Shown here in pieces: positions 3,153-21,626 of a stretch of DNA of 64,000 nucleotides. Below the pieces are notes generated by a model. It had not been told where the DNA came from, ran no database searches, and saw nothing but the letters and a program-made list of their open reading frames with translations. Source of the DNA: an uncultured Chloroflexia bacterium (GTDB lineage: Bacteria; Chloroflexota; Chloroflexia; QHBQ01; JADMIH01). Location of the stretch: contig CAWCNY010000005.1 of the NCBI GenBank assembly GCA_963797095.1, positions 160,001 to 224,000 of the forward strand, read 5' to 3'. A program made the translations under genes and the position numbers. Every line of letters begins with the position of its first letter. Position 1 is the stretch's first letter.

Positions 3153-3497
3153 CTATTTGGCGAAGTTGTCCAGGCCGAATTGCTCCATGGGTAGGAAGAC
3201 ATTTTCTGGTTCGGGTTGCCCGCCGAAAATATAGTATGTATCCGCCCCTTTGGTGGCTCCTATCTCATAAACAGCCCACTCATAGCTAATATCGGCGAGG
3301 AAAATGAGCCAGTCTGCGGCTATTGTGGGGAGTTGCCTGGCTTGCACTGTCGCTTCGGTGAAGTATTCCCCCTTCAATTCATGCAGCTTATATAGGGGTG
3401 CAGTCCAAACATAAACTCTGTTATAGTTAAGCCAGCAAATGACGAACGGGCTTGTCTGACTGGCCTTTCTGTTATCTGAGTAAAGAGCCTTTCTCAC
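3153..3497 (-). CDS. Hypothetical protein (possibly a gene fragment)
   Basis: 114-aa ORF of protein-like composition ending ~30 bp inside the left IR; no clear RBS or motif. Confidence 0.3.
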   Translation of the reverse strand: MRKALYSDNRKASQTSPFVICWLNYNRVYVWTAPLYKLHELKGEYFTEATVQARQLPTIAADWLIFLADISYEWAVYEIGATKGADTYYIFGGQPEPENVFLPMEQFGLDNFAK

Positions 3498-3515
3498 TCG
3501 CTTAGGAGGTCAGGT

Positions 3516-3725
3516 GTGAATACTCATGGCATCAGCCCATTTATGGGGCTTTTGTTGATATTTCTGGCTATAATAGCGGCTGTAATCGTGTTCTCAGCAA
3601 ACTCCGATCATAAGCGGCCGACAGAAGTAGCGTTAGTGACTGAACTAACAGCATCGCCAGCTATCAGCATAACGCCTAGTGTTAGCCGGGGTATGAGTAG
3701 CAACGGAGCAGAGAAGTACGTTTAG
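3516..3725 (+). CDS. Small single-TM hypothetical protein
   Basis: AGGAGG RBS before GTG; hydrophobic stretch FMGLLLIFLAIIAAVIVFSA. Confidence 0.45.
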   Translation: MNTHGISPFMGLLLIFLAIIAAVIVFSANSDHKRPTEVALVTELTASPAISITPSVSRGMSSNGAEKYV

Positions 3726-3764
3726 CTGTTCAGTTTGGTGAACATAGTGCCTGGTTAGCGGAGC

Positions 3765-4406
3765 TTACTCGGGTGGTAAACCTGCCTCAGTCCGGAGCAG
3801 CATCCGTTCTTCGCGTAGACTCAGTCGTCGTTTCTGCTCTGGCGGTTCCGATGGTTCCGCTAACCTACGTCGATGTCTTGCTTCTTCAGTTTCTTCAGGC
3901 CCCAAAGGCCCGGAAGGTCCGGATTGAGCTTCCACCCTTCCTTCCCATGTGCCGGCCAACTCATCCACATCTGAGGCGATCCGACCCAAGATCCTGCGTA
4001 TCCGTTTCCCCATCGAATGGCACATATTCGGTTTGGGGTCTGTCTCCAGTCGCAGATTTACTGCTACCTGCTTTCCTTGCTCCAGTTGTTCAAGCCAACC
4101 AATACATTGCCGCAGTGCATCGGATCGTTGCTTAAGTTGCTCACGTTCGACTCCCGTGCTGTATGCAACTCGCACTATGGCTTCGATGAACTGAAACAGG
4201 GCGGATGGCGGCGCTCTAAGAAACGAACGTTTTCCGGTCCTGATACAGGCGGATAGCCGATGTAGCCACATGAGTGCCACACATGAGCCTACTGGCGCTT
4301 CAGCATACCACAAATCATGGGAGGTATGCCCCCGACTTTTCACTGCTCCCCCTTCTTGGGAGGCGAGGGTTTGTAAGACAGCAGTACTTGGGGTAAGTTC
4401 AGGCAT
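3765..4406 (-). CDS. Hypothetical protein, 213 aa
   Basis: AAAGGAG RBS 7 nt before ATG; no recognised domain. Confidence 0.55.
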   Translation of the reverse strand: MPELTPSTAVLQTLASQEGGAVKSRGHTSHDLWYAEAPVGSCVALMWLHRLSACIRTGKRSFLRAPPSALFQFIEAIVRVAYSTGVEREQLKQRSDALRQCIGWLEQLEQGKQVAVNLRLETDPKPNMCHSMGKRIRRILGRIASDVDELAGTWEGRVEAQSGPSGPLGPEETEEARHRRRLAEPSEPPEQKRRLSLREERMLLRTEAGLPPE

Positions 4407-4890
4407 CAGGAACTCCTTTCGGCTGTAGGATTGGGTTTGCTACCTCCTATCATGCCAAAAAGGGTTCCTTTATTCAGTTTGTGAATTGCTTAACTTGACG
4501 CGGATGGGGGTTCTGGCCTATAACCGTTGTGGCAAATGCCGCTGTTGTATAGGCCCCGTTATGGACTACTCTCGTGATATCCACGGCTTTTTAGTGCATT
4601 CCCCAATCACTTATAAAGTACACCTTGGCCTTGGTTATTGATTGGCATCAAGAATAGTGATTACTCACGTATCGATTTTCACCAATCCTTCACCATTCTG
4701 TTACCCGTATTATTACTAATGCTCGTTAAGCTACAGTAAACCAACCATGCAGTTCGGAGCATTGATATGTAACTTACTAATGGCGGACAGTTGGTGATTG
4801 GGTATTAGCTAATGACGCTCTGAGCTATCGGTTTGCTGAGTACCTTGCGGCGCCCTCAACTGTTCTACACGGGTAAAACAGGAGGCTACT

Positions 4891-6237
4891 ATGCGAAGCG
4901 AAAGTTACAAGGATTTCACCAGAGGCTTGCTTTTTACTCTGCTGCTTGGGTTGGCCATGGCGATAGCGCTTGCAGGCATTTTGTCGCGTGGGACTGGTCA
5001 ATCCGCTGGGAGCAAGGATCAGTCATCTCAGGGTGGCAATGTGGCGCAGGTACCGCTTCCACCAGGCACTCAGGAGCCTACTATTATTCCTGAAGTGACG
5101 CCATCGCGACCCGTCCCCTCCAACACACCTCTTCCTGCATCTTTGGGGGCCGCAACTATTGTCACGCCTACAACGTCAACTCTGCTCGTCAACGCGAACC
5201 TAAACCTCGGCGAAAAGATCTCGGTTGATCGTCCAGAACCAGTACATTCCCTTGCTTTTGCTCCGACGGGCGACAAACTCGTATACATGACGATATCGGG
5301 GAACTTGTACTGGTCAGATATTGATGGTTCTAATGCTACATTAATCGATACCTATGACCCAGCTGCGAATTACAGTATCCTTGATGATCAGATGCCAAAG
5401 GGCAATACCCTGTTTGTACCGGGCTATGCAATGCAATTCACTCCCGGCCAAGCACCCCAAATAACCGCTGCGCCTGCTACGTTGGGACTATCTCAGATTC
5501 GTTGGTGGAGCGCAATCAGAGCAAGCGGGGTCACAGGTGGTCCATTGCGCGACGGCTATGTAGGTGGTGAGCAACTGGTTACCCTGGAAGCTAGCGGGGG
5601 AGTCGTATCCACCCTCAATGTGCCCTATATGGAAACTGGTGCTGTGAAACCAGGAGGTCAATGGTTGGCATATGCCACCAGCCAACAAACTACCGATACG
5701 CCATTTGTTGGATCGACACCTCAAACCATTTATTTGCTGAACCTGTTGACCGGTGACCGCCTTCAACTCACCCAACCTGGGATGGGATGGGAAGTCTTTA
5801 GCTGGTCCCCTGATGCAAACTGGATATATGCCAGTGCGATCGTTAACGGCGATTTGTATGGTGTGATGATCAGTGCGGATGGACTTCAATGGGTGGTCGT
5901 TACGCCGCCTGGTCACAGTGGTTACGATGCTGTTTGGAGCCCTAACAGCAGTCTGCTTGCCTTCTCTGTCATAGACGGTGGATGCGACGGTGACACGAGT
6001 CCTTGCCCTCCACGGGAGAGCCAAGTATATGTGGTCAACGTCCCAGAGCGCAAGAAGACGTCAATTGGTACCGGGCCCGGCCCTTTTATGAGTAGCGGTG
6101 CAGAGATGATGCGGCCCAAATGGTCTCCTGATGGCTCTCTGTTAGCTTTGCTATCCTTCAACCCCGACTGTGAGCCGAATTGCCCATGTACAGGGCTTGC
6201 GCCAGCATACTTCATGATGAACGCGCCAACCAATTGA
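4891..6237 (+). CDS. Membrane-anchored TolB/PD40-type beta-propeller protein (module 1)
   Basis: AGGAGG RBS; N-terminal TM helix; Pro/Thr linker; blade motifs FAPTGDKL, WSPDANW, WSPNSSLLAF, WSPDGSLLA. Confidence 0.85.
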   Translation: MRSESYKDFTRGLLFTLLLGLAMAIALAGILSRGTGQSAGSKDQSSQGGNVAQVPLPPGTQEPTIIPEVTPSRPVPSNTPLPASLGAATIVTPTTSTLLVNANLNLGEKISVDRPEPVHSLAFAPTGDKLVYMTISGNLYWSDIDGSNATLIDTYDPAANYSILDDQMPKGNTLFVPGYAMQFTPGQAPQITAAPATLGLSQIRWWSAIRASGVTGGPLRDGYVGGEQLVTLEASGGVVSTLNVPYMETGAVKPGGQWLAYATSQQTTDTPFVGSTPQTIYLLNLLTGDRLQLTQPGMGWEVFSWSPDANWIYASAIVNGDLYGVMISADGLQWVVVTPPGHSGYDAVWSPNSSLLAFSVIDGGCDGDTSPCPPRESQVYVVNVPERKKTSIGTGPGPFMSSGAEMMRPKWSPDGSLLALLSFNPDCEPNCPCTGLAPAYFMMNAPTN

Positions 6238-6338
6238 CCTCAGTCGTGGCTGTAAACTCTATTCTCAAACACACTTCGAAGTATTTGCTCGATCGTATGT
6301 CATGCGATTTTGCAGAGCAAAAGAGGAGCGACGAAACC

Positions 6339-7304
6339 ATGAACCAGAAACTAAGCCGTACTCATCGGAGAATGAGCGTGGCGCTTATATGGTGTGCTGC
6401 ACTGGTCGGACTGCTGGTGTGGTTGACGGCGTCACAAAGCACAGACAGTTTTGCTAGCACAGAAGGTTCGCAGCACAATAGCCAACCAGCTGGATATGCT
6501 GTTCCAACTCCATCAGCGTTTAAGAATCAAGACAACCAGGGCACCGAGGGATCGGATTCACCAACCGTGAATTTCCGTGAATTGACTAATTTCAAGTTTG
6601 TGCTGGATCCAGGACATGGCGGTACAGAACACCATGCGGTGGGACCGCGGGGTTCTCTGGAGAAGAACTGGAATTTGAGCATTTCCGAGAATTTGTACCC
6701 CAAATTGTCGGGTCATGGGGCTGTCGTATATCGTACTCGGACCTGTGACTGCACGGTATCGCTCGATGATCGTGTACGATTTAACAACAATCTGTACCAA
6801 AGTGGTGGCACCATAAATAACTGGCGCCTGATCTCGATCCACTTGAACGGGGCTTCTGATCCGGCGACTAACTATACCAGTACTTGGTATCGATATCAGA
6901 CTCCAAATGCCCCCAGCCAGGAACTGGCACGGGCCTTTGCAACTCAGATTGGAAGGACGACTAATCTGACTTCCTACGCCTGGACTGAAGATCTTGAGAT
7001 GACTAGATGTACGGAGCCGATAGGGTACAACATTCTGACGGAAAGCGGTTTCCTGACCAACGCGGCTTTCGAGAATAGACTGCTTGATCAAGGTTTTGCG
7101 AGTAGCCTGGCCGATGCTCATTATCGTTCGGCAGTGGATTACTGGCTGGTTGGCTATACAGGTCCACATCAGAACCTGAAACAGGACATTTACAACTCCT
7201 ACTGGGATAATCTCAATAATGGGATTGATCCAGGTGTGCCATTCGATAATGGAGGCGGCTATTATGCCCACCAATGGAACGATGCATTCACACAGGAGTT
7301 CAAG
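6339..7304 (+). pseudogene. N-acetylmuramoyl-L-alanine amidase (Amidase_3)-SLH protein, 5' part, split by IS21-family element
   Basis: AGAGGAG RBS; signal/TM segment; LDPGHGG, EKNWNL, TR...SLDDRV, ISIHLN, ILTESGFLTN. Confidence 0.92.
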
Positions 7305-7885
7305 TGTTTTTGTCAATAGAAAAGGGAGCCATTTGATAACCAAAAAGGGAGCCACTTCTCCTCCCCGACGAAAATATTGATAATTAAAAAAGGGAGCCAT
7401 TTGATAATCGAAAAGGGGGCCACACGGAAATCGCAAGTCTAGTGGGGACATCACGGACATGACTCTAGTCGACATTTGGAACAACATGGACCGCAGCACG
7501 GTCGTGGCTTATCGAACGGTCTTTGACGCTTCGCAACAATCGTTTGCATGGTGGGTTGTAATAATCCCTCTGGCGGTTGCGTTCGTCGGTGTTGGAATAT
7601 TGGTCAATCGCAGCCGCATACCCAAGGTACCTAGTGCCATAAGGATATCTGGATCTGTAACCCTGATCTGTGCTGGTTTGTGCGTTGCGATCTTCCTCTT
7701 TGCGTCGACGCTTTCCGCATATCATACTGGCAGCGATTTGCTCGCCACTAATCAGGCACAGGTTGCTGAGGGGCAAGTAATAGACCTAACCAGTACGGCC
7801 AGTGGCAAGGCCGAGAGCTTTAGGGTGCAAGGGGTCCAGTTTAGTTACTCCGAATACAGCGAGAGCCTTGGCTTTCACCATGTAA

Positions 7886-9184
7886 GGGACTCTCGATGAA
7901 TAAACTAGCCTCTTCTGGTGTTATACTCCAGTGATCACACTCTGGAGGTATGTTGATGGAACTAACCAACTCTCTCAAGACAATGCTAATCGAGACCGCT
8001 AAGTCCCTCAAAGGCAGTGACCGCCGCTTGTTTATGGCCCGTACCGTCAAAGAACTCGGTCCTGGTGGTCAAGCTCTCGCAGCCCGTGAACTGCACTGGG
8101 GCCGCATGACTATTCGCAAAGGTATCCATGAACTTGACACTGGCATCAGATGTGTCGATGCTTTCGCTGCGCGTGGCCGCAAGCGGTCAGAAGTTCATCT
8201 GCCCAACCTATTACCGGATCTGCAAGCTATAGTCGATAGCCAGAGCCAGGCTGATCCTCAGTTTCGTACTAACCGCCTCTATACCCGCCTCTCTGCCGCC
8301 GAAGTGCGCCGTCAGTTGATCGCGCAAAAGGGCTACACCGACCCGCAGTTGCCTACCCCAGAAACCATCGGGGGCAAGTTGAATGACCTGGGCTACTACC
8401 CCAAGAAGGTTGCCAAGTCGCAACCCCAAAAAAAGTCCCCCAAACTGATGCCATCTTCGAGCAAGTAAATGCGGTCAATCGCGCAGCCGATGCTAATGAG
8501 AGGGAATTGCGCATTTCTATGGACGCCAAAGCGGCTGTTTTAGTCGGGCCATTCTCCCGTGGTGGTAAGTCTCGTGTGCCGACCGCAGCCGCTGACCACG
8601 ACTTTGAAGCGCTGGCAAAGGTGACGCCAGTGGGGATTATGCTACCCCAGTCGAACGAATTGTTTCTATATGGCATTACTTCCAAAGTGACGAGTGACTG
8701 CCTGGTCGATTGTCTGGAGCAGTGGTGGCAGAGCGTGCGCAGTCGCTTCGCCACAATCAGGACGCTGGTGATCAATCTGGATAATGGACCGGAGAACCAC
8801 AGTCGGCGCACCCAATTCGTGCAGCGACTGCTGAATTTCGCATCGGACTACGGGATAAAGGTGCGGCTGGCTTACTACCCACCGTACCACAGCAAGTACA
8901 ATGCGGTTGAGCGCTGTTGGGGCATCCTGGAAAACCATTGGAACGGTGCATTACTCAACTCCATAGAGGCAGTAATTGCGTATGCGGGGACGATGACCTG
9001 GAAGGGGCGCCGACCGGCAGTGGAACTGGTGACAACAAGGTATGCCAGTGGGGTGAAACTGAGCAAAGAGGCGATGAAGGCAGTAGAAGGGCAACTCATA
9101 CGCCATAAAACGTTGGGCAAATGGTTTCTCGACATCACTCCTGCTCCACTCTACTCCCAGGCTTGTTAATTTCTTGAGAGTCCC
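7886..9184 (+). mobile_element. ISAzo13-family insertion sequence, 1299 bp
   Basis: 25-bp imperfect IRs GGGACTCTCGATGAATAAACTAGCC / GGGACTCTCAAGAAATTAACAAGCC; 3-bp TSD TAA (7883-7885, 9185-9187). Confidence 0.92.
7950..9169 (+). CDS. ISAzo13-family transposase, two ORFs joined by a probable -1 frameshift
   Basis: ORF A 7950-8468; ORF B has ISMDAKA, INLDNGPEN, YYPPYHSKYNAVERCW; slippery AAAAAAAG at 8428-8435 gives PQKK-VPQTDAIF. Confidence 0.9.
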
Positions 9185-9399
9185 TAAGTACACTTGGGGG
9201 GCCAATGAAAGAGGGGCTACAAGTCAAGATTTGGTATGCCCACATAGACGGCGATCCCTCGGATCCGGTGATATTGAAGCTAGAGATATCACAGTGAATG
9301 GTTATAGCCATTTGGCATCGGAAGAGTAGGCACAGGGACCATCCTGCTCATTTACCCAGACGCAATAAGGCTCGGTGTGCCAATTAGGATACGCTCAGT

Positions 9400-9723
9400 T
9401 CACCAATTCCAAGGCTTGCGAGGCCGTCCTACCCGTGGTCGCCATCCGTAGGGGCTAGTGTCTCGCTTGCGCTTCTCCCGCTGGCGCGCCGTGTTCATCG
9501 CCCTTTGGGCTTCCCTTCGGCAACCATCGCAGTAACGCGGAGCTGCCCCTGGATACTGCCACACCTCTCGCTCCTCGCTGCACCACTCGCAACGGAACGA
9601 AACGAGTTGAGCGTGGAGGGTTCGTGTGTAGCCCCGGCAGGTCGTTACCACCTTCGAGGGCGGTTCGACGGCAGGTTCGCTAGCTGGGAGTGCGCTTGGG
9701 TTAGAGCTGGAGTTAGAGGTCAT
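9400..9723 (-). CDS. Small Zn-ribbon (CxxC...CxxC) protein with basic AT-hook-like tail, downstream of istB
   Basis: CEWC...PRYCDGC, basic helix, RPRVGRPRK; 41 bp after the istB stop on the same strand. Confidence 0.75.
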   Translation of the reverse strand: MTSNSSSNPSALPASEPAVEPPSKVVTTCRGYTRTLHAQLVSFRCEWCSEEREVWQYPGAAPRYCDGCRREAQRAMNTARQREKRKRDTSPYGWRPRVGRPRKPWNW

Positions 9724-9764
9724 GACTTAATTTCGGCCATTTTGAGGTCAATTTTGCGAAAAAA

Positions 9765-10868
9765 CTAAGGCCGATCAGCGATGCTTGCCATTTGCGCCGG
9801 TTCTGCTTCCTCTGTCTCCCCGCTCTCCCCGATCTCCCCGCTCTCCCCGCTCTCCCCGCTCTCCCCGATCTCCCCCGCTTCTGCCCCCTCGTCTTCCTCC
9901 CCTCCTTCCATCTCTCGGCTCTCCAGACTCTGAATAGAACCGTACCCGAAATTCCCGTTCGCACCATCACCTGTTCTTTCACTTCGCCCCTGCCCCTGCC
10001 CCTGCACCTGTTGCTGTTGAAGACGCTGGCGAAAACGAAACAACTCTCCAACAAACTCCAGAATGTGTGCTTTGTGCGTGAGCCGGTCCAAAAGTGCAGC
10101 CGTCATTCGCTCATCTCCTAACACACTGTTCCAATCTCCAAATCGCAGGTTCGTAGTTATGATGATTGCCACTCTCTCGTAAAGGGTCGAACAGAACTGG
10201 AAGAGCAACTGCGCACCCGCCGCTGTAAATGGTATGAAGCCTAGCTCGTCCAGCACAATCACCTGCTGCTTGCACATCTGTGTCATGAAACGGGACAATC
10301 GCAGCTCCTGTTGTGCCTGGATCATATCATTGATTAAGCCTGCTACGTTGTAGAAGCGCACATGATGGCCCTGACGGCAAGCCGCAAGGGCAAGACTTGT
10401 GGCAATATGGGTCTTGCCAAGCCCTGGATTGCCAACCAAAAGGATCGGCTCTGCCCTCTGAATGTACCCACCCTGAGCCAGTTCAAGTACCCTCGTCTTG
10501 GCTAAACCCTGCACGACACTGAAATCGAAGTCAGCAAGCTCTTTGAGCACCGGGAATTTGGCGGAGGCGATAGAGCGTTCCACTCGATGCACTTCTCGTT
10601 GGCCTACCTCTCCTTCAGCCAGAGCTAACAGAAAACGTTCATAGCTGAGGTTGGTCTGTGCGGCATCTTGAGCCAACTTCTGGTAGTGTTGCACGAAGCT
10701 GGGCAATCGTAACTGGCGTAGATAGCTTTCCAGCAACATGTGATGTTCTGTCGCCCTTGCTGCCCTTGCTGGCTTTACCGTGTTCGTATTCGCCGTGTTC
10801 ACGGTCTGCGTCCTCTCCGTTCTCTCCCTCTCTTTCTCCAATTCATCCTCCTTGAAGCAGTTGCTCAT
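9765..10868 (-). CDS. istB: IS21-family helper AAA+ ATPase IstB
   Basis: LRQLRLP, FDF, Walker A GNPGLGKT, Walker [20 protein letters not shown]; start uncertain; low-complexity C-tail. Confidence 0.95.
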
Positions 10869-12537
10869 AACGACGTAAGTCGATGGGCTGGCTGCCGATT
10901 TTGCCAATGGCTTGCAGGTGTGGGTGATCGGCCAGCCCTACCAGATCAAGACCTGCAAGCATGGTCAGCTCTGTTTCAGGCGTGGTGAGTTGCCTCAAAC
11001 AATGGGTAACTCCATCAAAATGAACACACCCATACGAAAGAGCCTGCCCAACTGCTCGCTCCACAAGCACAGCGGGATAATCCTGATGAAGTTGCAAGAT
11101 GCGGACAAACTCCTTCACTCCTCTGCCTTCCGGCCACTTCTCCCGTAACAGTTCCAACGCCTTCTCATATGTAGGTGGCCATTTGGCTCGCCACCGGCGC
11201 AATGGTTTGGCATAATCGAATGCCCCTGGCCGCTGAGCGAGCAAAGGCAGGTAATGCAGTGGCTCGAAGATATCCTGCTCTCGCTCGTAGCAGCGGGGAT
11301 GACGGGCAAGCAATCCTGGTAGGCCGGAGCGGCCGGGCTGGTCATGCGATTGATTACGTGGCTGGCCATCGTTGGGATTGGGGTTGGGATTGGGGTCGAA
11401 TATGTCCACATGGAAAGGGTAAGCCTTGACGATCACTTCTCGCCTTGCTCTCTCGACGGGCACCGAGTAGCGATTGGTCTCAAAGATCACCTGGCTGTAT
11501 GGAGTGAGATGTGCCGTGCTCGTCACGCAACATTCATATTGGTAGGAAGGTAGAGGACGCAGATGAGGTAGCTCCTGCTCCCAGGCTTCTTTGATGGTGG
11601 TGGGTTGGCGCGCAACCCGGCGCTGATCATCTCGCAGGCACTCGCTCAGAAGAAAGATGTTCAATGCTTCAAATGAGGCCACATCTGGGATAGGTACCAG
11701 GAAGTTGCGGCGGCTAAACCCTACGCTGTGTTCAACACCTCCCTTCTCATGCCCTTGTCCAGGCGTGCAGAAGTGGCTCTCGAACAGGTAATGACTACGA
11801 AAGGCTACGAATGCTCTCTGCTCTCGTCGTACTCGTCCTTCGATCAGGAGGCGCACCGAGCTGAAAGAGGCAACCGGATCCACCGCCGAGGCCAGGTTGT
11901 CGTAGCTGATACGTTGGGGAACTCCACCAAAGTGCTGGAAAGCTGCCACATGACCGGCAAAGAAGGCTTCTTGTTTCTGCGAGGGGTAGGCCATCACGAA
12001 GGATCGCCTTGAGTAGTTCAGACGCATGATGAACAACTGCACGGTTTGGCGCTCGCCACCGATGACGGCAACAGCTTCACCCCAGTCAACCTGGGCGTCC
12101 TTCCCAGGCTCGAACTCTAGTGGTATGAACAGGGGTGGTGCGTGATGGGCTTTGCGATATCTGCTCACGTGCAATCGCACGCGAGACTCGCTACCCTGGT
12201 AGCCTTCCTTGACCAAAAGTTCAAAGATCTTGCGAGCGGTGTAGCGTTGTTTGCGTGGGAGACGGTCGTTTTGCTGTAGGAGTTCGTCGACACGGGTCTG
12301 GAAAGAGCCGAACACCGGAGCGGGTCTAGGTTTGGTGCGCCGGTAAGTTGGGTAAGGGTACGGTTGGTAGAATTGGGACTGGGATGGGTCCTGAGCCTGG
12401 GCTTGGGCTTGGGCAATGGCTTTGTCAACAGTCTTGCGGGAGTGCCTTTGTTCTCGTGCGATCTGCCTGACACTCTTGTGTTCGAGGTAGAAGGCGCGGC
12501 GGATGGCTTCGTGTTGTTCCACGGTAATCATCTCCAC
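10843..12537 (-). CDS. istA: IS21-family transposase IstA
   Basis: N-terminal HTH (SVRQIAR...SRKTV), [33 protein letters not shown]. Confidence 0.96.
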
Positions 12538-12704
12538 CTCTCTTTGCTATCGTATCGTTTGCGGTCTAACGGTCTAGCCGAGTAACCGAAAGGCAACATC
12601 TTTGCCTTGTCCCAACGATAGCAAAGAGAGAGCTAAGTGGCTCCCTTTTTGACTGTCAAGATTTCATCGAATGGCTCCCTTTTACATTAGCAGAAACATT
12701 CAAG

Positions 12705-13679
12705 AGTGGTGGAGGCCCCTATGGCTCTCCCAAGGGTTCTATATTGGGCCCCTCGGGCGGCGGTAGAGCCTTCTATGTACCGGACCCGATCTGGCAGAAG
12801 TTCATCGATAAAGGAGGTCCAACACGCAGTGGGCCTGGACTTCCCTTCAGTACGGACCCTTATCCTTTGAACTGGAGGGCAGTACATTCGTGGAATCCTG
12901 TGAGAGGCGTGCGGGGCGTGCAGTACCACTATCCGAGCAGTGGTACAGGCCCAGGTGTGGTGAACTTCCAGAACGGCGCGATCACTAATAATAGCTACGA
13001 GGGTACCGTCTTCCTGCCAAACTGCAATGCTGTCGATTTGGTCGTGTACAATCCACCGCATTGGGCACGTGACTTCGCTCTTGGAATGATCAAGCGGTTT
13101 GCTGTCAGCAACGAACCATATTCCAATGGTGCAATCAATCTAGACAACTATCCATTTCGTACTGTGGAACAGCCCGCGACCAGGGCACAAGTAGCACAGA
13201 GCCTAATGCTCGCTGAGGGCTATGCCCCGTACAGCGGTCCTGACCTGTTCACAGACATAGCCAGCCATTGGGGTAGGCAGTGGATAAACATGGCTGCAAG
13301 AGAAGGCACCATCAATGGCTATCCGGACGGCACGTTCCGTCCAAACAATACCGTGACGCGTGGCCAGTTCTCCCAAATGGTCGTACTCGCTCGCAGGCCG
13401 AATTGGCCCATCACTACCCCACCGGCTACACACTTTGACAACCCTGGTTGCCCCAACGGGTATCGCAGTTTCGCTGATATCTGCTATGGCAGCACTTTCT
13501 ATACATACATAGAGATCGCCAAGGATCACGGTCTCATCAGTGGCTATGCATGCGGTGGTCCCGGTGAGCCGTGCCTGCCAAGCCACGCGCCCTACTTCAG
13601 ACAGAATGCTTCGCTTTCCCGCGGGCACATAATGAAGATGATAGACCTAGCGGTCCCACCCTCTGGTGTCTGCTGGTAA
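12705..13679 (+). pseudogene. 3' part of the amidase-SLH gene (middle domain plus SLH domains)
   Basis: Resumes in frame after the TSD (TQEFK|SGGGPYGSPKGSILGPSGG...); SLH motifs FTDIASHW, INGYPDGTFRPNNTVTRGQF, ISGY. Reconstructed protein 646 aa. Confidence 0.9.
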
Positions 13680-13721
13680 GCGATAACCAGAGGGAGTGCG
13701 TCGAGAATAAGAATAACTGAA

Positions 13722-13758
13722 GCGAGCCAGGAGAGGAAGACAGGTTCACCTGGCTCGC
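13722..13758. terminator. Stem-loop between convergent genes
   Basis: GCGAGCCAGG...CCTGGCTCGC 10-bp stem; no clear U-tract. Confidence 0.5.
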
Positions 13759-13808
13759 CCTTACATGGTACACACTCAACCAAGAGCCGCCAGGTATCGT
13801 AGTATGAC

Positions 13809-15665
13809 CTAGCGTTGGCTTGATTGAGCTATTGCTTGGAATGATTGAGCTATTGCTTGGAATACTATTTTTGAAACCTGTGCTCTAGTTGCAGGGCCCA
13901 TGGGGCGGAAAGTGCCATCCTGATAGCCTGAGATCACCCCATGATTGTAAGCCGTTTCCACATAAGTGTAGAAGGTGCTTTCAGGGACAACATCGGAGAA
14001 ATGCGGTCCGCCTTGTGTGTTTATCACCCACTCTTCAGCCAGAACCACAATCTTACACACCTGACTTCTTGCCGCGTCGTCGGCAGGGCGGAAAGTGCCA
14101 TCCGGGTAGCCTGAGATCACCCCATGATTGTAAGCCGTTTCTATATAGATATAGAACGGGTGACTAACGGGCACATCGGAGAAATGTTGTTGTAGTTGCG
14201 TGTCAATGGGCCAGCCTTTGCTCAATACCACAACCTTGGCTAGCTGGCCGCGCGTGGTAGTGTTGGCGGGGCGAAAGGTGCCGTCCGGATAGCCAATCAT
14301 AACCCCATGACAGGCAAGATACTGGGCTGCATCGTAGAAGTAGCTTCCGGGAAGAACATCGAAGAAATGAGGCGTGCGTTGCCCAACATACCGCTCAATT
14401 AGCGATCCTGAGGGAGATACCGATGGGGTGTTGTAACTCCCCACGGCCCATACCATGTCCTTTGATAGCGCGAGGACGGCCATTAGCTGATTTTCGATAG
14501 TGCCTACACTGGGGCTGGGCACAATATTCCACTGGCTGCCATTCCAATGCATTACGATTACCTGTTCTGCATAATAGGGCGCATAAGCTCCCACAGCCCA
14601 CACATCATCGGACGCGGTGGCTGAGACCCCGTAGAGGCGGGTTTCCGTGCCAAAGTTAGGGCTGAGCACAACGCTCCATAATGTGCCGTCCCAATGCATA
14701 ATCAGCCCTTTTTGCACTTGGTCATATCGACCTTGGAATCCAACAGCCCACACGTCATCCGAAGCAAGAGCGAAAACTCCTCGCAAATCGTTGAGATCAC
14801 TATCGGGGTTAGGACTATCGATCTGTACCCAACTCTTGCCGTCCCAATGCACGACAAACGTTTGATCATGACCAGTATCATCGAAGTTATAACCCACAGC
14901 CCATATGTCACTCGGTGAAATTATGGATACGGAGTTCAGTTGGTTGTACAGATTGGGACTTGGAGAAGGGTGCTGGAGCCAGTGGTTACCATCCCAATGT
15001 TCAATCAGAGTTTGATTACCATTGTCGCTTTGATAATAGCCAACTGCCCACACATCGTCAGAAGTGACCGCGCCGACACCAATGAGAAAGTTCGAGCTAC
15101 CTGGATTTGGGCTAGGAACTATGGTCCACTGGTTACCGTCCCAGTGCTCAATGAGAGTCTGTTCCTGGTATAAGCGGCCAAAATATCCCACAGCCCATAC
15201 ATTGTCAGAGGCAATGGCTGCCACACCTGAAAGCTTATTCGTCTGGAGGCCGTTTGGGCTTGGAACCTGAGTCCACCTCATGCCATCCCAGTGTACAGAA
15301 AGCGTTTCTATGCTACCGTATCCCCAGGTATTGCCGACAGCCCATATATCCTGCGTGGAGATCGCCGCAATCCCCGACAGCGCATTGTAAATAGCACCTG
15401 GACTAGGGCTAGACACGACCTCCCAAGGTATGCAGCCCCTAATTGATGGTGGGGCTACAACATGTGAAAGCGGTGAGCGGCCAGTTGAAGGAGCTAAATA
15501 CTTCTTTGCTTCCGAAGTTGCGAGCTGACGCTCATTCGCAGAAGCAGTAGCAACAACCCTATTCGATTGTTCTGCCGGGTTAGCGCCGGCAATTCCGTTA
15601 GTACAAATAAACACGAAGAGGAGCGATGCCCAAACATACACTATAGCATTTATGGCATTTCTCAT
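13809..15665 (-). CDS. Secreted repeat (probable beta-propeller) protein with three SLH domains
   Basis: AGGAGG RBS; signal peptide; seven DVWAVG-type repeats mostly followed by HWDGxxW; three SLH repeats (GYPDGTFRP); 21-bp tandem duplication at 13821-13862 (FQAIAQS x2). Confidence 0.9.
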   Translation of the reverse strand: MRNAINAIVYVWASLLFVFICTNGIAGANPAEQSNRVVATASANERQLATSEAKKYLAPSTGRSPLSHVVAPPSIRGCIPWEVVSSPSPGAIYNALSGIAAISTQDIWAVGNTWGYGSIETLSVHWDGMRWTQVPSPNGLQTNKLSGVAAIASDNVWAVGYFGRLYQEQTLIEHWDGNQWTIVPSPNPGSSNFLIGVGAVTSDDVWAVGYYQSDNGNQTLIEHWDGNHWLQHPSPSPNLYNQLNSVSIISPSDIWAVGYNFDDTGHDQTFVVHWDGKSWVQIDSPNPDSDLNDLRGVFALASDDVWAVGFQGRYDQVQKGLIMHWDGTLWSVVLSPNFGTETRLYGVSATASDDVWAVGAYAPYYAEQVIVMHWNGSQWNIVPSPSVGTIENQLMAVLALSKDMVWAVGSYNTPSVSPSGSLIERYVGQRTPHFFDVLPGSYFYDAAQYLACHGVMIGYPDGTFRPANTTTRGQLAKVVVLSKGWPIDTQLQQHFSDVPVSHPFYIYIETAYNHGVISGYPDGTFRPADDAARSQVCKIVVLAEEWVINTQGGPHFSDVVPESTFYTYVETAYNHGVISGYQDGTFRPMGPATRAQVSKIVFQAIAQSFQAIAQSSQR

Positions 15666-15773
15666 GGAAGCCTCCTGGAGAACACGTAAGCAAGTAGGTA
15701 TGTTCTAAGTTCTGGTGATAGGTTACATCTTACTGGATAACCAGACTGATTGGAGCGTGAAGCAGTCGGTTAG

Positions 15774-16794
15774 GGAAGTGTCAGAAGTGAGGGCTCGCAA
15801 TCTCCCCAGCCATGTCCAATCCGTCTCAGCCAAGCCTCAACCCTGGCTTTCGTCTGCCTTCAGGCTGCCATTAGCATGTTTTACAGGGCACCAAATCGCC
15901 TCAGGAACAGCTGCCGTTGCTCCGATAGGGATAACTTTTCCCTCGACTTGCTACGATAGCGGAAATACTGCCGCTGCTCGCCGTACGCACTGCAGAACCG
16001 GGATGCCGAATCGAAACTACCAAATCCTCTCATTGACTAATATCGCTGCTTGATGCCCCGCTTGATGCCCCGATGATCCTGCTCCATACGGTTATTCAAA
16101 TAGCGATTTGTGCGGTGAACCACTTTCCGGCTAAGTATTCGACGTATGGCTCTTGGATAAGCATTATGCCCGTCTGTGGTCACCAGATCCGGGCGGCAAC
16201 CGGTCACTTCTTTGACCCCTTGAAGAAGCGCTTGGCTGCACCCATGTCCCGCCTCTTGGAGAGCATAGAGTCCACCAAATTGCCGTCCATATCTATGGCG
16301 CTGCACAGATAGCGCCACTTACCACCACCTTGACACAGCTCTCATCAATATACCACGAGCGGCCAGCCTTGCCCCTGCATTTGGGTCGGAGCAGTTATGT
16401 GAGCAAGGGGGCGAAGCGTGCTTCCCAGTCCCTCACCACCTCGTGAGTGAATTCGAACCCGTGGTCCAAGAACATTTCTGCCAGGTCCCTCAGGCTGAGC
16501 TTGTATCGCAATCTCCTCAAGACAACAAGTAGTACAAGGTCGGTTGGAAACTGCAGGTGGTTGAATTGAGTACCAGTGCGCTCATTGAAGACGCGAGTGC
16601 ATACTCTGCAACGGAACACGTTGTAGCCGAGGGAGATTTTCCTGGAGAGAAGGGTAGTGAAAGAGGAGGAGGAGCAGTGAGGGCAATTCATCGGCAGTCC
16701 TTGGGTATTCTTTGCTAGGAGATGGATAGAGTAGGGTAAGCATACCCCATAATCGTCATCATCGCTACCGCCTGTTCTCATTTCTGACCCTTCC
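15774..16794 (-). mobile_element. IS6-family element, degenerate
   Basis: 18-bp IRs GGAAGTGTCAGAAGTGAG / GGAAGGGTCAGAAATGAG; transposase from 16691 (CPHC, LRYKLSLRDLAEM, VTTDGHNAYP, NNRMEQDHRGIK) with stops and frameshifts; no TSD seen. Confidence 0.88.
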
Positions 16795-17225
16795 CCCACA
16801 GTGGGCTCGAGTATATCTCCTCCACTAGTTGGGCGCAATTTGTGCCTGCTATTGGCAGAGAGTAGGACACGAAGTGTGGAAAAATACTAAAGTGCCACTG
16901 CCAAGATGCGATAAGGAACTCTTGATTCGAAACACGGCGATATTCATGGCAAGCTATGTGATTGTATGGCATTCCGAGGAGCAATTGGCCCTGCCACTAG
17001 TGGCAGATTCATTGCATGTACCACATGTATGTTGTCTCCAGCATTGTCCACCTGGTGATATTCGTTGTCAAATGGGTAAAGCTAAAGCGTAAAAATATTA
17101 ACACCATGTCAACTTATTCTTTACCGGCGTTTCAACCTCCAAATGCTAAAGTTGTGATGCAATGGCTTATTGTCACCACAAAGCGGACGTTCCGCGCCAT
17201 GGGAGTTTCAACGAGGAGGTTAATC

Positions 17226-18638
17226 ATGGTAAAGCTTAGAAATATGAAGCGGTATGTCGGGATCTTGCTGACCTTGATAGCAACGGTTCTTGTAGTGTGG
17301 CTTTTGATCGGGCTGACATTTCCACCAAACCGAAATCCGATCAGGGCGGTGAGCGCACAAACAGGAGCAGACATGTTATTTGCGCAGGTGCCGCCACCTC
17401 CTGTCGAGACAGGAGTACCAACCTTCGTACCATTTTCTTCTCCCACTCCGGTTGCTACATACACTACTGAACCGGATCCTCCGCTCGCCCAGCCGCCTGT
17501 GGCGGTCAGCCTACCAAGGGGCGCCCATCCAGCACCGAACATAGCTTGGGCCATCCAAACCAGAAACACCCTGGCTATTTGGATAGGGACATATGCCGAA
17601 GTTGGGTCGCCTAGGGTTCAGGATCCTAGACCAATAGTGCGATGGAATGCTCCGCTTGAAGTCATTGATCTGGTGCCATCACCAGACGGCCAGGCACTTG
17701 CTGTTCTGGCCTATGATCGCCAAGCCAGAGAAACCGGAGATATGCTGCCAAATTGGCTTTGGACTGTGGATCTCAACACGAATGCTGTACAATCTCTGCC
17801 CGATTATACGCATTACGATCTGTACAAATGGTATTACTTTGGTTCGCCCGGTCGTATCCTTGGCTGGATCGATGTGAATCGTCTAGCAGTTCAGCGAACG
17901 GGTGGCTTCCCTGTAATTGCACGCCGGGATGGAACTTCCTATGATGAGGTTACATTCCCACAAGGCGGAGTTGGGCAGGTGGCACTCTCCCCGGATCGTA
18001 CGACGTTTTTCGCGGACGCTTTCAGCAGAGACACCTATGAATACGGCTTATGGTTGAACAACATTGACGGCAGCAATCCGCGCTTGTTGGTGGATGAGGC
18101 TCATGTTCGCCCCGTGGACAATCCTCAATGGTCACCAAATGGTAGATACGTCAGTTTCGGAACTCCTAAGCAGGCCACAATCCCTGATGGCAGCAAACAG
18201 GTCGTACAAGGCTATCGGAGTATCTGCCTGCTAGATGTGTCGACCCACACACTTTCAATTCTGGGCAATGAGGACAGTTGGGATGCTTCTCCGCAATGGT
18301 CTAGTGATAGCTCAACACTTGCGTTCCTACGTGCTCCGGCCCCAGTCGCCAATGACGGTGAGGCCTACTATGGCGCATATGAGAAGGTGAGTACCCACCT
18401 CTATTCAGTAGATGTGCGCGACCCTCAATTGCAGGCCAGGCAGTTGCTTCCACGCGCAGGCAACACCAGTATTCTCAAGTGGATACCCGACGCTGGGCTC
18501 TTGTTAGCTTCGACATTGGACGCACCCGACAACCAGCCAAGGATGGCCCTCTTCTCACTCGGATCAGGTAACCTAATCTCGTTGCTAGAGCGCACACAGG
18601 GTGAGACTATGGTACATCCGGTCTACATCTCTCGTTAG
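17226..18638 (+). CDS. Membrane-anchored TolB/PD40-type beta-propeller protein (module 2)
   Basis: GAGGAGG RBS before ATG 17226; TM helix; Pro/Thr linker; PSPDGQALA, LSPDRTT, WSPNGRYV, WSSDSSTLAF. Confidence 0.85.
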   Translation: MVKLRNMKRYVGILLTLIATVLVVWLLIGLTFPPNRNPIRAVSAQTGADMLFAQVPPPPVETGVPTFVPFSSPTPVATYTTEPDPPLAQPPVAVSLPRGAHPAPNIAWAIQTRNTLAIWIGTYAEVGSPRVQDPRPIVRWNAPLEVIDLVPSPDGQALAVLAYDRQARETGDMLPNWLWTVDLNTNAVQSLPDYTHYDLYKWYYFGSPGRILGWIDVNRLAVQRTGGFPVIARRDGTSYDEVTFPQGGVGQVALSPDRTTFFADAFSRDTYEYGLWLNNIDGSNPRLLVDEAHVRPVDNPQWSPNGRYVSFGTPKQATIPDGSKQVVQGYRSICLLDVSTHTLSILGNEDSWDASPQWSSDSSTLAFLRAPAPVANDGEAYYGAYEKVSTHLYSVDVRDPQLQARQLLPRAGNTSILKWIPDAGLLLASTLDAPDNQPRMALFSLGSGNLISLLERTQGETMVHPVYISR

Positions 18639-18705
18639 CAGCTCCTTCTTTGAGGTTCTATCAAGTATTAATCAAGACATACATGAGCAGTGTCTAGGAG
18701 GATTA

Positions 18706-20556
18706 ATGATATGAAGAGTTCGAACTCTTCTGCGTACCTTGCTCGTCTCAGCTGTCGCTGCTGCCATGTTCCAACTTCCAGTTGTGAATACTTTAGTAGA
18801 TGGCGACCCTACGGCCCAGGCAAGCGGGTTTGTGAGTCCTGTTACGATGCAGGCCCAACGCACCAATGAAAGTAGTGCAAAACCATCCAATCCAGAAGCC
18901 AGTAGTAGCCAAGACATACCTGACAGTGAATTCTTCCTACTCAGCTTCCCACTCTCTTCAAGATGGTATGTGTGGCGAATGCCCTCCGACCAGTGGACTT
19001 ACCAAATCTATACCTCAATGGTCGACCATAACCCCCCCTTCTATAGTGGCAACTCCACTCTTGAACCTTACACTGGTGAGTATGGTCCAACGTCTGGAGC
19101 ACCTCTTGCGAACAGTTGTGGAGATCTGCACTGGACGCATAGAGGTTACTGCTATGATGGCCATCCAGGTTTGGACCTAGCAGTAGTGGAATATACCCCG
19201 GTCTATGCTTCACATAGCGGGCGAGTGATCAGGGCTAGTGACATAGCTGATGGCTATGGTGTCACGGTGCTGCTTCGGGATGAAACCAACCCGAGCTATA
19301 TAACCCGCTACTCGCACTTCTTTGACGCTTCCGTGGTCGTGGGTGCGCATGTTGCTCGTGGTCAACAGATAGGTAGAAGTGGACACTCCGGAAGTGGCAC
19401 CGGCCAACATCTGCACTTTGGACTCTACTACGACAGTACCTGGAACAACAATGATCCCCACGATTGGGTTGGGCAGGTAGTCGACCCCTATGGCTGGTTC
19501 TCGTTGAGGCCCAATGGTTTAGGTGCTCCGGTGAATGACAATAAATGGGCAGGGGGCTATTCCTCGCAAGGAGCCACAAACGAACCGCCGTCAATCAACT
19601 TTAACGATGGTACGCTACAAGGCCACCAATATAGAAGCAAGTCTCTCATCTGGTCGGGTGTCCACAAAGTAGGTGCGTCAGGTCCGGACGAAATTGAGGA
19701 ATGGTGGGCCAACACTTATGGAGCAGCCGGACCACCTCTCAATGACAAATACAATCCTAAAGGCCAGACCTATTGGTGCCAGGACTTTGAAGGTGGAAAG
19801 TACTGCACTAATGGTATTGGCTACCAACCTTACTATGCCTTCACCGACGTGCCTATATCCCAGTGGGCACATCGCGACATTGAATGGGCGAAGCGCGAAG
19901 GTATATCGGATGGATATACAGACCCCTCTCGGTGTCCAAATGGTATACCATGCTTCCGCCCATACGATTTCGTATCAAGGGGGCAGATATCGAAGATGAT
20001 CGTGAACGCCTTCAGCTTCCCCATCAGTACGTCAGGTGGTCCACATTTTGCAGATGTTCCGGTGGGATCTACCTTCTACGACTACATCGAGACTCTTTAC
20101 AATCGGATTGTCGACAGCCAGAGAATAATCTCAGGCTATCCAGGCGATCCAAACCATTGGAATGCATGTCTTAGTCCTCCTGCATACGAGATGTCGGGCC
20201 TCACGTACTTCAGGTGGTGCGAGAACGTCAAACGTGGGCAGATGGCGAAGTTTACCGCCATGTCAATGGTAAGTAAGCTCTGGCTTACTCACGGCCTTGA
20301 TGCGACAACGCTCGGATCCGATCATGGCGCTGATTACTTTGACGTGCCAAGTTACGATACCTACTTCCGCGTTGTTAGGACCTTGCAGGATATTGGCGTC
20401 GTTCAATACCATCGAGCCGATGGTGATCCAGGTTGTACCAGTTACGGCTTTACATCTGAGCAATGCCAGTCTCTGGGGCATTTCTATACCTACTGGGATG
20501 CAACCCGCGCACAAGTGGCTCAGATTCTTCACGAAGCCATTTACTCTGTTCCATAA
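18706..20556 (+). pseudogene. M23-family peptidase with SLH domains; start region disrupted
   Basis: HPGLDLA, YSHF, QHLHFG zinc motifs; SLH motifs FTDVP, FRPYDFVSRGQ, FADVPVGSTFY. The in-frame ATG at 18706 after AGGAGG hits TGA at codon 3; ATG 18711 is out of frame. Could still be translated from TTG 18739. Confidence 0.75.
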
Positions 20557-20619: not shown

Positions 20620-20786
20620 TTTGCGGAGATATGATGCCAAGCCAAATACCAACCAAGCAGACATCGACTGTTTCCACCTGTGCCTTAACCACTCCTTCGA
20701 CATGATAGATGGGAAAGCATTGGAATTGATGGCCGTTTTGTGCTTCTGTGATATTGTCTCACGCGCTACCAACAAAGGAGGATAAA

Positions 20787-21626
20787 ATGCTTAAGAAATC
20801 ACTGCCACTCGTTCTCATTTCTGCGATCGCGATTGTACTCATTACTACCTATCAGCCAATGTCTCTCGTTCAGTCAATTACCAAAAGTCAACCGGAACAG
20901 GTGCAAAGTACAGACACCGCAACATGTCAACGCTTCAACGAGACTGGTTTCCAAGTGTGTGGGAGGCTATTAGCTTATTGGTATAAGTATGGCGGGCTAC
21001 AGCAGTTCGGTTATCCGGTCAGCGAACCTTTCAAAGAGATCTCCGAAGTGGATGGAGAGGAGCATACTGTACAATACTTCGAGCGTGCAGTATTCGAGTT
21101 ACATCCCAAGAACCAGCCACCTTATGACTTATTGCTCTCCCAGTTGGGAAGACAGAAGTACCAGCAAAAATATCCGTCCGGCACCTCAGGTACTGAATGG
21201 ACAGGAGATCCACAACCAGATCTCAACATAAGCAAGCAATTACGCACCGGAATCAATATCAAGCTGATACGGGCAGAGCAAGGCGCAATAACTGGATTAT
21301 ACTCTGGATACTGTGGGCTCCAGATGACGTGGGTACTGCAAATCGAAAACACAGGCAACACACCCTTTGATGCAGAACTGGATACGGGAAATCTGAGGAT
21401 GGCAGACAGCACTGGCAAGAGCTATTCCCCCACTCGTGAGTGTGGCGGAAGCTCTGTTACTCCTTATAGTGGGTCATTTGCGCAACCTACTCGTATGATG
21501 CCCGGTGACATCCTGAGAGGTACGATAGCTTTCAATGCTAGTGACATTCCGTTGAGCGCATCCTACTTTCAAATCAGAGTCAACTTCTCAGGTATGCCAG
21601 TTGAGTTTCGGTATATGCTACCATAG
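20787..21626 (+). CDS. Secreted protein with GGxxxFGYP/QYFER surface repeat and a C-terminal beta-rich (Ig-like?) domain
   Basis: AAAGGAGG RBS; signal/TM; FNETG...YGGLQQFGYPVSE...VQYFERAVFELHP. Confidence 0.82.
   Translation: MLKKSLPLVLISAIAIVLITTYQPMSLVQSITKSQPEQVQSTDTATCQRFNETGFQVCGRLLAYWYKYGGLQQFGYPVSEPFKEISEVDGEEHTVQYFERAVFELHPKNQPPYDLLLSQLGRQKYQQKYPSGTSGTEWTGDPQPDLNISKQLRTGINIKLIRAEQGAITGLYSGYCGLQMTWVLQIENTGNTPFDAELDTGNLRMADSTGKSYSPTRECGGSSVTPYSGSFAQPTRMMPGDILRGTIAFNASDIPLSASYFQIRVNFSGMPVEFRYMLP

Follow-up and report, generated by a model that had tools for sequence, protein, structure and literature searches.

In a 64,000-nucleotide stretch of the genome of an uncultured Chloroflexia bacterium (contig CAWCNY010000005.1, positions 160,001 to 224,000, the whole of which is referred to here as the window), two loci were identified that each consist of a conserved pair of genes, one for a membrane-tethered propeller protein and one for a wall-anchored peptidoglycan hydrolase. 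The propeller protein of the first locus, prop1, is followed by an amidase of the Amidase_3 family and that of the second, prop2, by a peptidase of the M23 family, with both hydrolases carrying surface layer homology (SLH) domains. That a wall hydrolase has a cognate partner protein is a known theme, which is found here in a new form confined to one uncultured order of Chloroflexia. Each pair is read as an autolysin with its own dedicated membrane-tethered controller, most likely one that restrains it, and a probability of roughly 40% is given to this reading.

The twofold layout of a propeller gene and an SLH hydrolase gene on the same strand, which had been noted in an earlier reading of the window made from its letters alone (here the sequence-only reading), was recovered from open reading frames (ORFs) and Pfam matches, with an Amidase_3 gene after prop1 (spacing of approximately 100 bp) and an M23 gene after prop2 (approximately 70-100 bp). 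The anatomy that had been given for the first gene was likewise found, these proteins possessing a hydrophobic helix, a linker with the sequence VAQVPLPP (prop1) or FAQVPPPP (prop2) and weak similarity to PD40. The genes of the two loci are as follows (aa, amino acids; TM, transmembrane; RBS, ribosome-binding site):

4891-6237, + strand: prop1, 448 aa; TM helix, Pro/Thr linker and putative PD40-type propeller (ORF, weak PD40 match, family alignment A4)
6339-7304, + strand: 5' part of the amidase gene, 322 codons; signal peptide or anchor and Amidase_3
12705-13679, + strand: 3' part of the amidase gene, in frame with 6339-7304; family-specific middle region and SLH
17226-18638, + strand: prop2, 470 aa; TM helix, disordered Pro-rich linker and a predicted propeller of approximately seven blades
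18706-20556, + strand: M23-SLH hydrolase gene; ORF from TTG 18739, with an RBS and ATGs at 18706 and 18711 upstream and a stop/frame problem

Conservation of the pairing

The pairing was surveyed among 40 genomes of the order to which the genome of the window (G000) belongs, covering three families (f1-f3), by fetching the loci and scanning the neighbouring genes with Pfam. All nine M23-SLH orthologues with a match to the catalytic domain were found to have a prop2-family gene immediately upstream in the same orientation (G000, G007, G019, G014, G024, G002 and G039, with two in G038). The same position, directly downstream of a prop1-family gene, is held by the amidase orthologues identified at E < 1e-20 (3/3; G017, G007 and G019), a count that leaves out weaker Amidase_3 matches in G029 (E 1e-13) and G028 (E 1e-11), and a fourth prop1-amidase pair, fragmented, is present in G024. 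Amidases were found only with prop1-type propellers and M23 genes only with prop2-type propellers, and the remaining M23 genes (five over the Pfam cut-off) and Amidase_3 genes (two) of G000 have no upstream propeller. The pairs persist although flanking genes vary between genomes, and this recurrence in relatives with different flanks exceeds chance; two diverged pairs occur in G038. The proposal of cognate, co-inherited pairs was thus upheld, with a propeller upstream of every hydrolase orthologue found.

In most loci the gap inside the pair, with both genes on the same strand, measured 12-143 bp, and no plus-strand terminator- or promoter-like site was identified between the paired genes, scan counts being at the level of shuffled sequence. 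Pairwise identities of propellers and hydrolases were found to correlate over eight pairs (Mantel r 0.64, p 0.006), a correlation that is confounded by shared ancestry. Three of the genomes are flagged as unpublished, namely G002 (one M23 pair and one EamA-type locus, described below), G003 (one EamA-type locus) and G026 (two unpaired loci). The pairs of G024 (L068, L064) are split over several frames, this genome comprising 20 contigs at 71% completeness.

Seen from the propeller side the association is looser, propeller genes being found also without a hydrolase gene after them. An amidase was present at five of the 13 prop1 loci and absent from eight (G000:C3:194843, G012, G017:C7, G010, G033, G026, G020 and G017:C350), with the prop1 duplicate on G000:C3 retaining no more than 57 nt from the start of the amidase gene. 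Similarly, nine of the 26 prop2-family loci (three fragments left out) have an M23 gene and 17 do not. The latter include five close prop2 relatives (two in G015, and one each in G017:C114, G026 and G036, where the prop2 gene is followed by an SLH-only protein), and the other prop2-type contexts consist of seven loci with EamA/ABC exporter genes, two with an extracytoplasmic function (ECF) sigma gene, two with a helix-turn-helix (HTH) gene and topoisomerase I, and one near an integrase fragment.

At the two sigma-coupled loci (L167:2953-5492 and L168:3824-6366) the ECF sigma gene overlaps by 4 nt the gene of a 605-608-aa propeller protein, which begins with approximately 100 aa of cytoplasmic sequence, followed by a TM helix and a Pro/Thr linker that leads to the outer domain, a propeller of the prop2 type. 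This arrangement suggests an anti-sigma factor whose sensor is the propeller, although Pfam showed no anti-sigma domain in the protein (L167, L168). A second-tier prop2 paralogue of 27-34% identity occurs in seven genomes (L162-L166, L173, L175) with a divergent EamA transporter gene on one side, and one to two convergent ABC exporter genes stand opposite EamA in four of the seven loci, where the contig goes on.

Distribution, chromosomal position and divergence

A sample of 401 genomes of the class gave full-length matches to the two propeller families only within the order of the window. There, 19-20 of the 40 genomes have prop2 and 10 have prop1; outside the order, partial PD40 matches to prop2 (approximately 110-190 profile positions) were found in 13 of 361 genomes and a single partial match to prop1 in the 361. 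A word-indexed search of 5.8 billion proteins returned 12 prop2 relatives, and an exhaustive profile search of 1.84 billion representatives returned 446 proteins at E <=1e-30, with 49 of the best 150 being single-stretch family-type matches and the rest multi-repeat PD40 proteins. Scanning of genome contigs with alignment A2 gave three true relatives, all in Chloroflexia metagenome-assembled genomes, the other 76 loci being generic PD40, and metagenome contig scans with alignment A3 and with P0014, the closest homologue of the M23 hydrolase, gave no confirmed relative.

The prop2-M23 pair is followed directly by SelA in G038 and directly by TGT in G039, both of family f3. In the window SelA (32944-34356) and TGT (34357-35601) lie 12.4 kb downstream of the M23 gene, with a Tn3 unit, a glycosidase-like gene and two SLH genes in between. 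From this conserved site it follows that at least two families of the order inherited the pair from a common ancestor and that the mobile elements came later. The window has several of these, namely IS66 (1504-3089, with other copies in the genome), an IS21 element with a nested insertion sequence (IS), and a resolvase with a Tn3 transposase (22619-26675). The suggestion of a mobile cassette had therefore to be abandoned for prop2-M23, which has held its position beside SelA and TGT in two families. Other members of the genus have a pair beside GDH (G007) or ThrRS (G014), and these differing sites, together with the two pairs of G038, point to several old paralogous pairs, each of them still paired.

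In comparison with G000, members of the same genus (G007, G014, G019) showed identities of 37-39% for prop2 and 42-44% for the N-terminal part of the M23 protein, against 76-88% for seven housekeeping proteins (16 of 17 reference queries gave a match). For positional orthologues in f3 the values were 29-33% for prop2, 38-40% for the N-terminal part of M23, 53% for SelA and 65% for TGT. Other SLH surface proteins were also found to be fast-evolving (50-64% identity), so the divergence is not specific to the pairs.

Propeller proteins

Both propellers scored below the PD40 cut-off of Pfam (19 bits for prop1 and 19-20 bits for prop2, against 20.9), which was passed by members of the family (P0010 with 35 bits, P0004 with 27.6 bits, and L167 and L168 with 42-46 bits). 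An AlphaFold2 model of prop2, built from a 19-sequence alignment (pLDDT 80.9, pTM 0.75), showed a TM helix at residues 5-28, a linker of low confidence to approximately residue 90 and then beta-strands, with 29 strands in 93-467 that can be read as about seven four-stranded blades. Foldseek searches with this model returned S9-peptidase propellers (8wt1, E 1e-10) and TolB (4r40, 2w8b and 2hqs, E ~1e-9). A beta-propeller fold of prop2 is supported by its relatives over the PD40 cut-off, by the predicted structure and by the Foldseek matches. Its plain TM helix is replaced in relatives by a lipobox-like Cys in 10 of 14 complete N-termini (alignment A1).

Comparison of prop1 with prop2 by BLASTP was not significant (E 0.18) and was confined to the anchor and linker, whereas an hhalign match between the profiles of the two families spans 117 columns of PD40 blades (probability 97.9%, E 5.7e-13). 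The propeller assignment of prop1 is accordingly a putative one, based on its weak PD40 match and this profile link to prop2. The prop1 family tree had no supported fork (0/6), and a single clade of paired prop1 genes is not claimed from it.

A P-x-P-V-x-T motif was observed at the start of the linker in prop1 (residues ~52-60), in prop2 (~53-62 of the 470-aa form), in homologues of alignments A1 and A4 and in the sigma-coupled forms. Across the genome, P-x-P-[VI]-x-T behind a hydrophobic stretch was identified in 14 of 5035 ORFs of at least 200 aa, making it rare and not a general feature, and the linker is otherwise variable and disordered in both propeller families.

The amidase and its interruption

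Amidase_3 was identified in the ORF 6180-7319 (E 1.1e-22, 81 bits against a cut-off of 27), for which 6339 is the likely start, and SLH in the ORF 12744-13679 (E 1.1e-15). The amidase frame ends at 7319 within an insertion and picks up again in frame at 12705, the gene being split at codon 322 by the following element:

7305-12698, no strand assigned: IS21-family element with a nested ISAzo13-type IS, flanked by the TTCAAG duplication

On an intact 636-aa relative (L060) the 5' part covers residues 50-322 and the 3' part residues 324-634, and this head-to-tail alignment on uninterrupted relatives shows a single, recently broken gene. The 6-bp target duplication TTCAAG is present at 7299-7304 and 12699-12704, and the ends of the element are imperfect inverted repeats. 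On the minus strand it encodes istA (10843-12537) and istB (9765-10907), with Pfam matches to IstB_IS21, the rve/Mu-transposase C-terminal domain and DDE_Tnp_ISAZ013, while the nested ISAzo13-type IS, of approximately 1.3 kb, lies at ~7887-9184, apparently with a 4-bp duplication. Elsewhere in the genome, four further copies of the IS21 element and two of the nested IS were found to be 99.4-100% identical. The IS21 element itself measures approximately 4.1 kb (5.4 kb with the nested IS), and besides istA and istB there is approximately 2.4 kb of additional sequence in it, with an ORF for a TM protein (7459-7899) and a 107-aa ORF (9400-9723), neither of which belongs to a family.

The nearest solved chains to the Amidase_3 domain were 4rn7, 7rag_B and 1jwq, with 7tj4_B also among the closest. 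Against the compact 180-aa enzymes 4rn7 and 1jwq the amidase aligned nearly gap-free over the whole domain, and it matches them at DPGHGG, E-K, SIHLN and ESGFL, the metal and catalytic positions of Amidase_3. Alignment with AmiA (8c2o) and AmiB (3ne8) extends over the first 65-90 residues only, so no insertion of the AmiA/B type is evident. With the CwlD equivalog model the amidase scored 65 bits against a cut-off of 221.

The M23 hydrolase

Peptidase_M23 was identified in 18739-20556 (E 6.8e-21, 74.7 bits against a cut-off of 28.7). The residues of the HxxxD and HxH motifs (H142, D146, H224 and H226) are invariant in the 13 sequences of alignment A3, as are D96 and H97 of a conserved N-terminal extension of approximately 80 residues. 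From these motifs and those of the amidase, both hydrolases look catalytically complete.

At the start of the M23 gene a good RBS is followed by ATG 18706, with a stop two codons on, and by ATG 18711, one base out of frame; the in-frame text before TTG 18739 resembles the missing part of the signal peptide and the N-terminus of P0014. This frame problem may be a true mutation or a homopolymer error of long reads. One soil-metagenome run (X1) was found to contain 6% of the sampled words, but its five contigs (151-220 bp) do not span the M23 start or the amidase junctions. In G000, three intact propeller genes were counted and all copies of the hydrolase genes are damaged. With the amidase gene split by IS21 and the start of the M23 gene affected in this way, the system is probably disabled in this genome, although the propeller genes are intact.

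Modelling of the M23 hydrolase with AlphaFold2 gave a poor result (mean pLDDT 55.8, below 50 at residues 1-144 and 248-317), and a look-up of its middle region in the ESM Atlas gave no usable match. The sequence-only reading was correct in describing the second gene of each locus as encoding a secreted protein with Amidase_3 or M23 and SLH. The Gly/aromatic middle domain that it had the two share was rejected, as hhalign between the hydrolase families aligns the SLH region only and BLASTP of one against the other gives 35% identity over 171 aa within that same region. The middle domains match no Pfam or NCBIfam model. Directly after the M23 gene a 292-aa ORF (20748-21626) was observed, with an N-terminal hydrophobic segment and no Pfam or NCBIfam match, at a position that is not kept in relatives.

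SLH anchoring

The SLH domains of the hydrolases scored 57.7 and 28.9 bits (cut-off 20.8). At least 135 SLH domain matches were found in the genome (150 of 330 candidates scored), so SLH anchoring is not a distinctive feature of these proteins; many of the matches sit in open frames of 600-4000 aa, representing a very large SLH surface proteome. Pyruvyl transferase connects with the anchoring of SLH domains to the wall polymer, and a gene of this type (PF04230, 108 bits) is present in the genome, which is compatible with the hydrolases being attached in this way. SLH is included among the wall-binding domains that accompany Amidase_3 enzymes in a review (PMC6403190).

Predicted interaction of prop2 and the M23 hydrolase

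The complex of the M23 hydrolase (residues 55-365) and the prop2 ectodomain (residues 95-470) was predicted with an own alignment for each partner, in three runs and with three controls. The median score was 0.46 (runs of 0.46, 0.54 and 0.00) and the best control scored 0.00; contact agreement between runs was at least 0% and partner pLDDT at least 76. When the method was calibrated, 116 of 157 solved complexes and two of 215 mismatched pairs attained this mark, with values up to 0.60 accounting for only 18 of the 157 solved complexes and for both of the mismatched pairs that passed. The prediction of cognate complexes, as the sequence-only reading had proposed, thus separated the pair from its controls in score and did so without yielding an interface, and it lends weak support to direct binding of the predicted partners.

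Possible function of the pairs

Under the preferred reading the two genes of each locus would form an operon, belonging to a cell-wall system specific to this lineage. The second of them would encode a Sec-exported hydrolase, either an N-acetylmuramoyl-L-alanine amidase of Amidase_3 or an M23 endopeptidase, that its SLH domains would keep on the wall polymer of the producer itself. The first gene would encode the partner, a propeller that a TM helix (in many relatives a lipid anchor) would fix to the cytoplasmic membrane through a disordered Pro-rich tether of 60-100 residues. We infer that this propeller binds its cognate hydrolase directly and most likely restrains rather than activates it near the membrane, in which case cutting would be limited to the place and time needed for wall turnover or cell separation. 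The strict, family-specific adjacency that survives duplication argues that each hydrolase depends on its propeller. Restraint is favoured over activation because the enzymes look constitutively competent, because propellers persist without hydrolases and not the reverse, and because a propeller-like hydrolase inhibitor, Tsi1, is known (PMC3391265); the lean is a weak one.

A number of points weigh against the controller reading as a whole. Nothing tells restraint from activation, the N-terminal extension of the M23 hydrolase (D96, H97) could be an autoinhibitory segment that is freed by the partner, and by analogy CwlD, likewise a compact Amidase_3, needs an activator. The complex prediction returned no interface and one of its three runs scored 0.00, while the M23 model is poor where it matters, with the N-terminal extension and the middle region below a pLDDT of 50. 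Relatives of the propellers occur in unrelated contexts, as a general module that is not hydrolase-specific. The pair counts are not independent because related genomes are kin, and the fragmentation seen in G024 may be due to assembly error and not to pseudogenes.

It is rather unlikely, in our estimation, that the propeller instead activates or positions a latent hydrolase, with cutting occurring only near the membrane or septum. Known Amidase_3 and M23 enzymes rely on partner proteins in such a manner. Such activation would draw on the same pairing and the same prop2-M23 score (0.46, best control 0.00), on the closest solved amidases including 7rag_B (CwlD) and 7tj4_B (LytH), on the M23 N-terminal extension of approximately 80 residues, which could block the active site until the partner binds, and on 11 tolB insertions recovered in an E. 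coli screen for lost NlpD-dependent amidase activation (PMC5533458). However, the intact propellers found without a cognate hydrolase (prop2 in G015 and G017, and eight of 13 prop1 loci) would be odd for a dedicated activator, the amidase has no regulatory insertion of the AmiA/B type, and a propeller-type hydrolase activator was not found in the full-text literature outside subscription-only papers. We also consider it unlikely that there is no direct partnership and that the propeller is a general module for envelope binding or sensing (of wall fragments, for example), co-transcribed with the hydrolase through their shared compartment. The reuse of the family at the ECF sigma-coupled loci (L167, L168) and the seven EamA/ABC exporter loci suggests that the propeller is a general extracytoplasmic binding module, and this keeps such an explanation alive, as does the weak prop2-M23 score with its run of 0.00. 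Set against it is the strict adjacency (9/9 and 3/3), which is family-specific and survives both duplication (G038) and changes of the flanks.

Quite unlikely is a role in antagonism, in which the hydrolase is a surface lysin directed at neighbours or prey and the propeller is the cognate immunity protein that protects the producer and its kin. The finding of no hydrolase without a propeller and the common orphan propellers would agree with it, as would the patchy distribution (prop2 in 19-20 and prop1 in 10 of the 40 order genomes), the much greater divergence of the pairs than of housekeeping genes and the precedent of Tsi1 as a propeller-like immunity protein. In contrast, SLH would hold the enzyme on the wall of the producer, only a Sec-type signal is present, and the loci scanned contained neither domains for delivery or trafficking nor genes of a secretion system nor spare toxin cassettes. 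The putative immunity gene is the upstream one, with a product of 450-540 aa, there is no common scaffold on which catalytic domains are exchanged, prop2-M23 occupies a conserved chromosomal site, and rapid evolution (50-64% identity) is general among SLH surface proteins. In addition, a 2012 survey of polymorphic toxins states that no beta-propellers had been found among immunity proteins (PMC3482391). An extended form of the same idea appears improbable, namely that the propellers are a new family of proteinaceous hydrolase inhibitors, each co-diversified with a single lysin displayed on the surface, and that they confer immunity where filamentous Chloroflexia antagonize one another on contact or discriminate kin, with the orphans being defences retained against the lysins of neighbours.

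Bacteria need control over their own wall-cutting enzymes, and the controllers known, such as LytM factors, FtsEX, GerS, ActH and immunity proteins, come nearly all from Proteobacteria and Firmicutes. Restraint by the propellers would represent a different solution in an order of Chloroflexia, where two hydrolase types without relation to each other would each have a membrane-tethered PD40 propeller of their own. Should binding and control be confirmed, the propellers would form a new fold class among hydrolase regulators or inhibitors and would offer a handle on wall turnover in a phylum with a poorly understood envelope; they would bring no new principle, they concern one lineage, and both enzymes are ordinary members of their families.

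Comparison with known systems

TolB is similar in being a PD40-type envelope propeller that binds a peptidoglycan-associated protein, and TolB chains were among the best Foldseek matches. The propeller of TolB has six blades and the prop2 model approximately seven, and the window propellers differ further in their membrane tether, which consists of a Pro-rich linker and either a TM helix or a lipid. They scored 25 and 29 bits against the TIGR02800 equivalog cut-off of 343, none of the 15 matches to this model over the whole genome passed that cut-off, and no Pfam match to the TolB N-terminal domain, tolQRA or pal was found in the propellers or their neighbours. E. coli tolB mutants are reported to lose NlpD-dependent amidase activation (PMC5533458).

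In Tse1-Tsi1, a propeller-like protein inhibits the peptidoglycan hydrolase encoded adjacent to it, as has been shown for that system and is proposed here. Tsi1 is described as a partial propeller that resembles DPP IV propellers and blocks Tse1 (PMC3391265), and the folds nearest to prop2 are S9-peptidase propellers. Unlike the window propeller, which is complete (~380 aa in the model) and encoded upstream, Tsi1 is small, consists of three sheets and is part of an effector-then-immunity operon of a type VI secretion system; no secretion system is located near the window pairs and their hydrolase would sit on the wall of the producer. Tsi1 was absent among the Foldseek matches listed for prop2.

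CwlD and LytH need membrane-associated activators, that of CwlD being a lipoprotein. The systems CwlD-GerS, LytH-ActH and AmiA/B/C with EnvC or NlpD resemble the prop1 locus in that an Amidase_3 enzyme is paired with a membrane- or lipid-anchored partner, but these known partners are LolA-like, TPR or LytM-domain proteins and not propellers. The LytM domains of the activators EnvC and NlpD are degenerate M23 domains that have lost their metal ligands and act on a separate amidase, whereas the M23 domain of the window retains all metal and catalytic residues, and its M23 and amidase genes belong to separate modules with a propeller each. BLIP-II is a soluble, secreted, seven-bladed propeller that tightly inhibits beta-lactamases, and the likeness to it, drawn in the sequence-only reading, is one of description (seven blades, enzyme inhibitor). 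In the full-text literature outside subscription-only papers, no PD40- or TolB-like propeller was found to be described as dedicated to a peptidoglycan hydrolase.

The X-Tfe effectors of Xanthomonas are delivered by a type IV secretion system and the fold of the X-Tfi immunity proteins is not known to be a PD40 propeller. These immunity proteins are reported to guard the producer from cis-intoxication by its own wall-degrading effector (PMC10933484). The resemblance lies in a partner protein for an own wall-degrading enzyme, which there provides immunity and here is proposed to restrain. Polymorphic toxins are defined (PMC3482391) by an N-terminal trafficking domain, a variable C-terminal toxin, an immunity gene directly downstream and spare cassettes. 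In the window, by contrast, the catalytic domain is N-terminal, the anchor C-terminal and the partner gene upstream, and no trafficking domain or toxin cassette was found by Pfam in the loci scanned. The description of the modules as polymorphic, with catalytic heads swapped between them, was consequently not sustained, since they are joined by generic PD40 and SLH homology only and are not polymorphic alleles.

Duplicated segment and neighbouring genes

A 3.3-kb segment of the window (3087-6395) is duplicated at G000:C3:86117-89425 with 99.97% identity and contains a 213-aa ORF without assignment, prop1 and 57 nt from the beginning of the amidase gene. The second copy of prop1 (G000:C3:86278-87621) is 100% identical. 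The copy in the window begins exactly at the end of IS66, and that on C3 lies between an integrase-like ORF and a 1002-aa Tn3-type transposase, so both amidase copies of the genome are cut, each by a different mobile element.

The amidase gene is followed by a convergent neighbour:

13809-15665, - strand: 618-aa protein with a WAVG-repeat propeller-like region and three SLH, kept beside prop1 loci

SLH was matched in three stretches of this protein (E 1.6e-34), together with DUF2510 and Rax2 propeller matches. Including that of the window it was observed beside prop1 in four genomes (G000, G007, G017 and G012), with relatives of 51% (L060), 36% (L057) and 37% (L059) identity, and this WAVG/SLH protein may be a third member of the amidase module. 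Between the two modules, a 147-aa ORF (16395-16838, - strand) with a zinc-ribbon match was found to have 78% identical DNA at C3:767631-768302; on visual inspection it looks similar to an IS transposase in its N-terminal part.

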